A DNA stretch of 64,000 nucleotides from Bacilli bacterium (lineage in GTDB: Bacteria; Bacillota_I; Bacilli_A; RF39; UBA660): NCBI GenBank assembly GCA_017435485.1, contig JAFSEY010000001.1, forward strand, positions 17,197 to 81,196, in the 5' to 3' direction. The notes beneath the pieces are model-generated. The model worked only from the letters and a program-made list of their open reading frames with translations. It was not told where the DNA came from and searched no databases. The position numbers and the translations under genes are program-made. Position 1 is the first letter of the stretch, and every line of letters begins with the position of its first letter. Shown one piece after another: positions 30,491 through 31,513 of this stretch.

Positions 30491-30895
30491 TTAGAAATTA
30501 TATTTTTCTAATATTTCTCCTTCTTCATCATAAATTATAGATTCTACATTAGCCATATATAAAACTTGAAACTCTGGATTATCTAATGTATAACCAGCAT
30601 CTAATGCCCAATCAAATTCATCAATGACTGCTTGTTTTACTTTCATATTTTGACTATCATCTATTAATTGACAATTAATTCTTATCCATTTTTCATCATC
30701 ATATGCAACTATACAAACATTATTATTTTTTTCTATTTGCTTAGATACATTTTTATGTTTGTTAGTAATTACATATATCTTATCATCAACCATAATAGGA
30801 TCACCAAATGGTCTACAACTTGGCTTACCTTCGTTAATTGTAGATACATAATTTACTTGTGTATTTTCTTTTAAAAATTTATAAGTTTCATTCAT
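30491..30895 (-). CDS. Pyridoxamine 5'-phosphate oxidase-like FMN-binding protein
   Basis: STINEGKPSCRPF, ITNKHKNVSKQIEKNNNV, WIRI. Confidence 0.8.
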   Translation of the reverse strand: MNETYKFLKENTQVNYVSTINEGKPSCRPFGDPIMVDDKIYVITNKHKNVSKQIEKNNNVCIVAYDDEKWIRINCQLIDDSQNMKVKQAVIDEFDWALDAGYTLDNPEFQVLYMANVESIIYDEEGEILEKYNF

Positions 30896-30974: not shown

Positions 30975-31000
30975 ATAAAAAAAGCAGTCTAATACTGCTC
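30975..31000 (-). terminator. Intrinsic terminator of the anti-csp RNA
   Basis: AGCAGT-CTAAT-ACTGCT hairpin; U7 tract on the minus strand. Confidence 0.8.
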
Positions 31001-31195
31001 GACAACTTTTTTTATTACTACATACTTCTTTACTATATTACTAGAAAGAGATGTGCATGTTCTGACTTGGAAAAGTCAAGTGGTTCAATAATACACAATG
31101 GTGTCCAAAGGTTATGGTTCAAAAACACCATTGGCGACATCTTCAAATGAAGATATCTTTGTTCATTATTCAGCTGTCAGTATCGCTACTGACAA
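30975..31195 (-). ncRNA. Candidate structured sRNA antisense to cold-shock-protein (csp) mRNA
   Basis: Plus strand reads SD-ATG...GKVKWFNN / KGYG / NEDIFVHYSA in broken frames, separated by hairpin-forming inserts; sigmaA promoter and terminator lie on the minus strand. Confidence 0.7.
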
Positions 31196-31199
31196 TATA

Positions 31200-31228
31200 A
31201 ATATAACATAATTCGACAAAGTTTGCAA
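31200..31228 (-). promoter_or_regulatory. SigmaA promoter of the anti-csp RNA
   Basis: TTGCAA (31223-28)-N17-TATATT (31200-05) with extended TG. Confidence 0.7.
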
Positions 31229-31240
31229 TACTTTATAGGT

Positions 31241-31513
31241 CTATTTAGACCTATATTTTTTCTGACTTCTTTTATATACTAAAAACTTCCTAAAAATTAT
31301 CAATGCCGTACTTCCATTAGGCAATGGAAGTAATAATAAAAAGACAATTAAAGGGAATAAAAAGAATAGAAATATTTTTATTTTATAATCAGTTACTAAT
31401 GATTGTAATAAGAAACCAATACCACAAGCAATCCCCATAGCAATGATTTCTAAAATACCAAATCCTTTAAAAATCTCTCTTTTAGTTTTTATGTTTTTGG
31501 GAATAAGATACAT
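31241..31513 (-). CDS. PrgI/VirB3-like membrane protein
   Basis: MYLIPKNIKTKREIFKGFG..E, two TMs; position in the T4SS operon. Confidence 0.6.
   Translation of the reverse strand: MYLIPKNIKTKREIFKGFGILEIIAMGIACGIGFLLQSLVTDYKIKIFLFFLFPLIVFLLLLPLPNGSTALIIFRKFLVYKRSQKKYRSK

Follow-up and report, generated by a model that had tools for sequence, protein, structure and literature searches.

A cold-shock gene fragment remodelled within a candidate antisense RNA of an integrative conjugative element

Structured antisense RNAs such as CopA/CopT, RNAI/RNAII and Anti-Q of pCF10 initiate pairing through loops and act on transcripts of the element that carries them. These RNAs are encoded in cis or at the same locus and control copy number or transfer. 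DicF, a small RNA of the Qin prophage directed against ftsZ, is about 53 nucleotides (nt) long, requires Hfq, pairs through a short and imperfect match and shows no visible descent from ftsZ. Here, we describe a locus of an AT-rich gut bacterium of the Bacilli in which a piece of a cold-shock protein gene (csp) lies antisense to a promoter within an integrative conjugative element (ICE). Csp proteins are abundant chaperones of RNA and single-stranded DNA (ssDNA). The analyzed window is a stretch of 64,000 nt (C11:17197-81196), and positions below are those of the window unless a contig or locus is named. The locus sits in a 345-nt gap separating two minus-strand genes, a prgI-family gene and a gene for a 134-amino-acid (aa) PNPOx-like protein. 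We tentatively read it as the gene of a trans-acting antisense RNA of about 215 nt, which would pair with csp mRNA and reduce Csp synthesis; judged from the sequence, this reading has slightly less than an even chance of being correct.

Homology of the intergenic fragment with csp

The host genome (1.08 Mb in 14 contigs, 27% GC, estimated to be 94% complete) was searched with a DNA profile (nhmmer) of 15 csp genes that belong to other genera in this family. The profile matched the true csp gene at C11:3313-3526 (E = 8.8e-48) and the intergenic fragment on the plus strand at 31036-31177 (E = 2.4e-14, covering profile positions 5 to 124), and the next match had an E value of 0.16. This result confirms the csp origin that an earlier note on this DNA had proposed. 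In an alignment with 16 csp genes of the family, the fragment corresponded to about 140 nt, comprising the csp 5' untranslated region (UTR) from about position -25, the Shine-Dalgarno (SD) sequence and codons 1 to 32. The 3' half of csp was absent, and the frame was shifted. Four blocks, numbered 1 to 4, were near-identical to csp (31033-31054, 31069-31092, 31107-31119 and 31143-31174). The stretches between them (31055-31068, 31093-31106 and 31120-31142) had no alignable counterpart in csp and lengthen the fragment by 11 and 9 nt. The left edge of the csp insert is ambiguous and falls somewhere from about 31036 to about 31047.

The csp-like pieces quoted in the earlier note were all found where it had placed them, namely, AGAAAGAG at 31043-31050, GGAAAAGTCAAGTGGTTCAATAAT at 31069-31092, AAAGGTTATGGT at 31107-31118 and AATGAAGAT...TCAGCT at 31146-31175, as were the ATG at 31057-31059 and the TGA at 31063-31065. 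However, its reading of 31043-31059 as an SD sequence followed by a start codon was misaligned. The csp start codon aligns to the TGA at 31063-31065, and the csp SD sequence GAGGTG aligns to GAGATG at 31048-31053 rather than to AGAAAGAG. The loss of the reading frame was nevertheless correctly recognized, given the TGA at the start-codon position and a frameshift in the csp alignment. An intact csp open reading frame (ORF) with SD sequence and start codon was accordingly absent from the fragment, in which the start is TGA and the SD core is GAGATG. At the protein level, the PF00313 profile gave 14.2 bits over profile positions 11 to 34 only, below the cut-off of 27 for a csp gene. A reading of TGA as tryptophan (genetic code 4) was rejected, as the long ORFs are intact under table 11.

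The fragment was identical to the host csp at 20 of 24 positions in block 2, 11 of 13 in block 3 and 23 of the 26 core positions in block 4, of which the 6-nt 5' extension beyond the core had no match in the host csp. Closer matches were found in other members of the family: block 4 was identical to the csp gene of genome G017 (30/30), and block 3 was identical to two family csp genes (13/13). Searches of the host genome and 60 relatives matched the fragment to real csp genes only. Near-perfect matches of 22 to 30 nt occurred in many other genera and lay in csp genes at all 15 loci checked, and perfect runs of 26 to 30 nt were present in csp of several genera. As a separate observation, a metagenomic csp gene (L041:523-622, minus strand; SDBS01022982.1) contained a 42-nt in-frame insertion between the WFN and KGYG codons. 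The insertion includes a stop codon, is flanked by TCCAAGAA direct repeats and is unrelated to the ICE element; it may stem from misassembly or represent a small insertion.

Next, conservation of the blocks was examined over 66 nt from blocks 2 to 4 against the same 16 csp genes. The fragment agreed with the family consensus at 61 of 66 positions, compared with an average of 57.6 for the real csp genes. Its mean identity to the 16 genes was 56.3/66, compared with 54.2/66 among those genes themselves. The sole base unseen in any of the 16 genes, C31077, pairs with G31064 in a hairpin described below (H1). The random, pseudogene-like decay that the earlier note had set against its own proposal was thus not seen in the blocks, whose match to the consensus was 61/66. 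Blocks 2 to 4 retain 65 of 66 natural positions beside segments that cannot be aligned at all, and uniform random decay, as in a neutral pseudogene, is therefore ruled out.

Another explanation places the product on the plus strand, as a csp pseudogene or a truncated csp-like mRNA that stops at 31234-31255 and is either junk or a decoy. Just past the fragment, a perfect palindrome of 9 to 10 bp (TATAGGTCTA..TAGACCTATA, 31234-31255) overlaps the prgI stop codon. This hairpin, which the earlier note did not mention and which is absent from related ICEs, is terminator-like on the plus strand only and may act as a plus-strand terminator. In addition, the KGYG and EDIFVHYSA blocks share one frame in a 37-aa ORF (31098-31211), which PF00313 touches weakly (E = 0.04). 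However, the T6 run after the palindrome represents the Lys-Lys codons (AAAAAA) of prgI, the 37-aa ORF has no SD sequence, and the SD core and start codon of csp are destroyed and followed by a frameshift. On the plus strand, no promoter comparable to that of the minus strand was found, the best candidate being TCGACA-16-CATACT without TG, and the structure statistics given below were weaker. We consider a plus-strand product very improbable.

Promoter and structure of the predicted minus-strand RNA

A scan of the region detected a sigma-A-type promoter on the minus strand at 31228-31200, consisting of TTGCAA, a 17-nt spacer and the extended -10 element TGTTATATT, followed by TATATTGT. An intrinsic terminator lies on the same strand at 30975-31010, with a stem at 31000-30982 (GAGCAGT-ATTAG-ACTGCTT) and then U7 at the predicted 3' end. 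Both signals and the inversion of the csp piece relative to them had been claimed in the earlier note and were recovered by the scan. Transcription would start at about 31193, and the predicted RNA would run for about 215 nt, to about 30977. In the host genome, 138 sites were of the quality of this promoter, and 64% of them fell in the 10.8% of the genome that is non-coding. Across the family, the motif TTGMMAA-N15-18-TATANTTATATTGT occurred 37 times in 33 of 401 genomes, compared with one occurrence of the reversed control. It precedes hrcA, recA, tRNA, pilin or prepilin, XRE-type regulator and csp genes (loci L072-L101) and is therefore a family-typical strong promoter. The possibility that the promoter had itself been captured from csp was rejected, since the shared TATATTTATATTGT is a general promoter type of the family.

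Two further sequence features were observed at these promoters. The conserved TATATTGT recurs after the -10 box in family promoters. In most csp genes of the family (L009-L029), a TTTGTCGA-like motif precedes the start codon by 60 to 150 nt; this motif has 19 copies in the host genome, including one in the csp 5' region (G000, C11:3577-3584). Another copy lies in the spacer of the RNA promoter (31213-31220), where related ICE promoters have the inverse (CGACA). The motif may be a shared operator, or its recurrence may be a coincidence.

Read 5' to 3' on the minus strand, the predicted RNA begins with hairpin H4 (31175-31194), which has a stem of 8 to 9 bp, a GCGA loop and a folding energy of -10.7 kcal/mol and is not derived from csp. 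Block 4 (31143-31174) follows and is antisense to the (E)NEDIFVHYSA codons (RNP2); its 5' half is predicted to be single-stranded, and its mean probability of being unpaired is 0.45. Hairpin H3 (31134-31156; 8 to 9 bp) combines a csp-derived arm, GAAGATATC, with a second arm, GACATCTTC, which is an inverted copy of the adjacent GAAGATATC and forms one U-G pair on the minus strand. In hairpin H2 (31096-31135), two non-csp insertions form a stem of 9 to 11 bp, and a loop of 16 to 20 nt presents block 3 (31107-31119), antisense to KGYG/RNP1, with an unpaired probability of 0.82 in the loop. Block 2 (31069-31092), antisense to the GKVKWFNN codons, has an unpaired probability of 0.53, being partly single-stranded and partly the 3' arm of hairpin H1 (31063-31078). 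H1 consists of 6 bp (TGACTT/AAGTCA) over the former csp start-codon position. Block 1 (31033-31054) is antisense to the csp 5' UTR and SD region (TATTACTAGAAAGAGATGTGCA). The segment UAGUAAUAUAGUAAAGAAGUAUGUAGUA (31011-31047) toward the 3' end is common to small RNAs of related ICEs, as described below, and the terminator completes the RNA.

The stems listed in the earlier note were all present: TGACTT/AAGTCA (31063-31068/31073-31078), AATGGTGT/ACACCATT (31098-31105/31126-31133), ATCTTCA/TGAAGAT and TGTCAGTA/TACTGACA (31175-31182/31187-31194). The minimum free energy (MFE) of the RNA was then compared with that of 1,000 variants in which the non-csp segments alone were permuted. On the minus strand, the MFE was -42.4 kcal/mol, against -26.3 ± 3.6 kcal/mol for the variants, and none of the 1,000 was as good (z = -4.5). 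On the plus strand, the corresponding values were -40.4 and -29.6 ± 3.7 kcal/mol, with 5 of 1,000 variants as good (z = -3.0). Folding of the whole 226-nt region gave z = -4.75 for the minus strand and -3.13 for the plus strand. The proposal that the inserted sequences are not random and build structure therefore stood, with no minus-strand shuffle as good as the native sequence. In the minus-strand ensemble, the csp-complementary blocks had unpaired probabilities of 0.38 to 0.82, compared with 0.10 to 0.27 for the inserted segments.

As the earlier note had surmised, the RNA belonged to no family that could be recognized; the Rfam covariance models gave nothing at the gathering threshold in the window and, at a permissive threshold, only two chance-level matches in the element (E = 5.7 and 8.2). 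No credible ORF was found in the element, where two 37-aa ORFs (31033-31146, minus strand; 31098-31211, plus strand) lack an SD sequence and a hydrophobic stretch. A type I toxin-antitoxin locus was rejected, as the element does not contain a small hydrophobic toxin ORF with an SD sequence.

Several perfect inverted repeats in an intergenic region of an ICE could also act at the level of DNA. The hairpins of the transferred strand would then serve as a single-strand origin or as an ssDNA promoter, from which the complementary strand is synthesized or genes are expressed early in the recipient. The H4 loop TAGCGA (minus strand) is reminiscent of the CS-6 motif of ssoA origins. BLASTN searches of the plasmid (72,556 records) and phage collections, however, found nothing similar to the element, and the hairpins are short and separate, unlike the long imperfect hairpin of ssoA or Frpo. 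An ssoA-type single-strand origin was rejected on these grounds (short separate hairpins, and no match in the 72,556 plasmids). Because a DNA-level role also leaves the csp homology and the block pattern unexplained, we regard it as scarcely credible.

Predicted target and origin of the RNA

The host has a single cold-shock-domain gene, csp. To identify duplex partners, the RNA was scanned against 1,460 ORF starts of the host (-40 to +110). The host csp was the best partner (-92.9 kcal/mol), compared with a mean of -39.9 ± 7.2 kcal/mol and a runner-up at -72.2 kcal/mol. The host thus has a csp gene that matches the segments, as the proposal of the earlier note demanded, and this gene ranks first among the predicted targets. 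With G-U pairs included, pairing with the host csp extends over 15 of 19 positions in the UTR and SD region, 22 of 24 in block 2 (20 identical and 2 G-U-compatible), 11 of 13 in block 3 and 24 of 26 in the core of block 4. The altered SD position (GAGGTG to GAGATG) still pairs with the csp target as a G-U wobble. The blocks matched the csp genes of 16 genera at 53 to 60 of 66 positions. RNase III is encoded in the host genome.

We propose the following mechanism. The locus would be a stand-alone small-RNA gene of the ICE, in which a host-type sigma-A promoter downstream of prgI drives the minus-strand transcript of about 215 nt. A family-type csp piece of about 140 nt would have been embedded antisense in a scaffold common to related ICEs (promoter, 5' hairpin, 3' UAGUA-rich segment and terminator) and then remodelled. 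The remodelling would have destroyed the SD sequence and start codon and replaced or expanded three stretches with sequence forming H1 to H3, leaving four csp-complementary blocks (anti-SD, anti-KWFNN, anti-KGYG in a large loop and anti-EDIFVHYSA) comparatively exposed. Acting in trans, the RNA would form a duplex with csp mRNA that extends from the ribosome-binding site to codon 32. Such pairing is predicted to block translation initiation and to create duplexes for RNase III, thereby lowering the level of the only cold-shock-domain protein of the host. Since the blocks match the family consensus, the same silencing could take place in recipients of many genera.

The scaffold was compared in related ICEs. 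In L052 and in L056/L057, whose PrgI proteins are about 50% identical to that of the window, a homologous promoter lies 0 to 14 nt beyond the prgI stop codon; a 5' hairpin begins directly behind TATATTGT, and a terminator completes the predicted RNAs of about 85 to 100 nt. In L092, the same promoter follows the type IV secretion system (T4SS) coupling-protein gene and precedes an RNA of about 160 nt rich in GUAGUA repeats. These small-RNA genes (L052:1786-1900, minus strand; L056:1776-1880, plus strand; L057, minus strand; L092:1500-1700, plus strand) share the 5' hairpin, a UAGUA/GUAGUA-rich segment and the intrinsic terminator. The window RNA at 31016-31047 aligned with the L092 RNA in 28 of 32 columns (31 window bases and one gap), with a score of 42, compared with a maximum of 31 in 500 shuffles. 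The last 57 nt or so of the window RNA, including the terminator, aligned with the L056 RNA (p about 0.004). From the homology of the 3' segment together with the positional conservation of the promoter, it follows that the csp piece lies antisense inside a pre-existing small-RNA gene of the ICE. The related small RNAs had no csp content, no notable complementarity elsewhere in their own genomes and no Rfam match, and no csp-like sequence was found by tblastn or blastn at 29 related ICE loci located via PrgI. The L092 RNA was also seen to carry about 15 GUAGUA-like repeats within a long hairpin (z = -3.4). A bolder view, which we hold to be doubtful, is that ICEs of this bacterial family possess a modular small-RNA scaffold that can be programmed by antisense capture of a host-gene piece, in this case with the conserved 5' part of csp, which hairpins exposing the motif-coding blocks would have refined into a broad-host-range silencer of the only cold-shock-domain RNA chaperone of the cell while the ICE resides in it or is transferred.

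The arrangement of promoter, structured RNA, terminator and genes on one strand could instead mark a cis-acting leader or attenuator, which would control read-through into the downstream cargo and T4SS genes, from the 134-aa gene through virB4. Its csp-antisense part would serve as a sensor, and pairing with csp mRNA or binding of Csp would alter termination or RNA stability. CspA-family proteins are reported to act as transcription antiterminators in E. coli, and in L052 and L056 the RNA is followed by one or two terminators and then directly by the SD sequence of the next gene. Against this explanation, the MFE and centroid structures contained no pairing that competes with the terminator, about 33 nt separate the terminator stem from the end of the last csp block, and no riboswitch, aptamer or leader family of Rfam was matched. 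Furthermore, the 134-aa gene has an extended -10 promoter of its own and occurs elsewhere without the leader. We regard a cis-acting role, which could also be mediated by a protein or an RNA, as improbable.

A stronger competitor of the antisense reading is an incidental scar, which we judge unlikely overall but to be taken seriously. According to this explanation, csp DNA was recently captured by illegitimate recombination into an ICE small-RNA or leader gene, is transcribed antisense only because of its landing site, acquired its hairpins from template-switch (inverted-duplication) mutations and has no selected regulatory role. In its favor, variable cargo is frequent downstream of prgI, and the RNA scaffold, which in related ICEs is free of csp, would have a function of its own. 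The arm GACATCTTC of H3 is simply the neighbouring GAAGATATC copied in inverted orientation.

Several observations weigh against a silencing RNA, some of them in favor of such a scar. The element is known from one ICE lineage only, namely, at least 7 metagenome contigs that are all >99.88% identical, the copies having been located in 7 places by an identical-protein look-up of the neighbouring gene. Assemblies with this ICE include ERZ28018825, ERZ27256761, ERZ28653922, SRR12529054 and GCA_017434955.1. One copy (L032) carries two single-nucleotide polymorphisms, one of them in the anti-SD block. A second csp mosaic was sought with IUPAC patterns for the csp blocks with enlarged gaps, and none was found in 185,579 GTDB species genomes or 241 million JGI metagenome records; the five matches were all ordinary or oddly assembled csp genes. 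Likewise, no diverged homologue of the element was found among the searched genomes, metagenomes, plasmids and phages. The hairpins are perfect inverted repeats that fold on both strands, with a slight advantage for the minus strand; each arm could have arisen by a single template-switch mutation, and H3 resembles a simple inverted duplication. A very recent capture would leave the blocks just as free of decay. Of the csp genes compared, that of the host itself agrees rather poorly with the blocks (54/66), and two A-C mismatches fall in its pairing with the RNP2 block. Finally, silencing the sole csp gene might harm the host and is not known to benefit the ICE. The analysis gave no support to the purposes suggested in the earlier note, namely, protection of ssDNA transfer intermediates and altered antitermination.

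Other evidence speaks against a mere scar. At least three separate structural changes all yield hairpin arms while 65 of the 66 block positions remain natural, and the single non-natural base makes a base pair. The inserted segments are arranged in a non-random way (0/1000 shuffles) that leaves the complementary blocks more exposed. Even an unselected RNA of about 215 nt with such complementarity would be expected to pair with the abundant csp mRNA. The antisense reading therefore keeps the tentative preference given above.

In addition, contigs of this ICE from three independent assemblies begin within the element (L032, L034 and L036, at 31202, 31174 and 31116, respectively). The breaks were likely caused by the csp-identical stretches, which would tangle the assembly graph with the chromosomal csp gene.

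Genomic setting and comparison with known systems

Judged from the encoded proteins, the surroundings of the RNA element are a Gram-positive-type ICE with genes for a tyrosine integrase, a T4 coupling protein, a MobL relaxase, an M23 peptidase, a DNA methylase, a 774-aa VirB4-like ATPase, PrgI, TrbL_4, a sortase and a SpaA-type surface protein. The upstream neighbour is the prgI-family gene for a T4SS membrane protein (31241-31513, minus strand; PF12666), whose homologues in related ICEs are 45 to 71% identical. The downstream neighbour, the PNPOx-like cargo gene (30491-30895, minus strand), has its own TGCTATAAT extended -10 promoter and its own terminator (30476-30458). An identical 134-aa protein is encoded at L035:1-105 in a different upstream context and without the csp-antisense RNA element, and the gene therefore appears to be an independent cargo module. 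The prgI-virB4 interval of related ICEs (L043-L059) is a hot spot of variable cargo, which includes DUF4313 genes, XRE regulators, lipoproteins and orphans, and the intergenic lengths differ. A duplication of an att site was rejected as an origin of the element, which lies in the middle of T4SS genes.

If the antisense reading is correct, the locus would clearly exemplify how a conjugative element turns a captured and reshaped part of a core host gene into a regulator of the same gene. The RNA would also, to our knowledge and in the literature searched, be without precedent among mobile-element RNAs in having a cold-shock protein as its target; no description of an anti-csp RNA on a mobile element was found in that literature. 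Because the host has a single Csp, an abundant chaperone of RNA and ssDNA, its control by an ICE would bear on the manipulation of host physiology and perhaps on the fate of the transferred ssDNA. The locus would also illustrate a concrete evolutionary route to new small RNAs, in which an RNA scaffold already in place receives part of a gene. The blocks are directed at the most conserved coding segments, and a single RNA might in this way be effective in hosts of many genera. An RNA without effect would reduce the locus to a curiosity, in which a small-RNA gene of an ICE recently picked up part of another gene.

Compared with genuine csp genes (PF00313), the element shares nucleotide homology from the 5' UTR to codon 32 and keeps the segments coding for RNP1 and RNP2, but it lacks an intact ORF, SD core and start codon, carries 11 and 9 extra nt and runs opposite to the only good promoter. 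In its scaffold it resembles the RNAs of L052, L056/L057 and L092, which likewise begin with a hairpin, contain a UAGUA-rich 3' segment, end at a terminator and have their promoter immediately behind the T4SS gene upstream, whereas those RNAs are 85 to 160 nt long and free of csp. Like the RNAs of the CopA/CopT type, it is encoded by a conjugative element and presents complementary sequence in stem-loops, with the anti-KGYG segment in a loop of 16 to 20 nt; unlike them, its complementary target is a chromosomal host gene. With DicF-type RNAs of prophages and islands it shares, as predicted here, a location on a mobile element, its own promoter, a terminator and complementarity to the initiation region of a core gene elsewhere on the chromosome. 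It differs from DicF in its length of about 215 nt, in its recognizable captured copy of about 140 nt of the target split by hairpins, in its residence on a Gram-positive-type ICE and in a function that is predicted. Altogether, the unusual features of this element are its visible derivation from the target gene, its block-and-hairpin architecture, its ICE small-RNA scaffold and the target itself.

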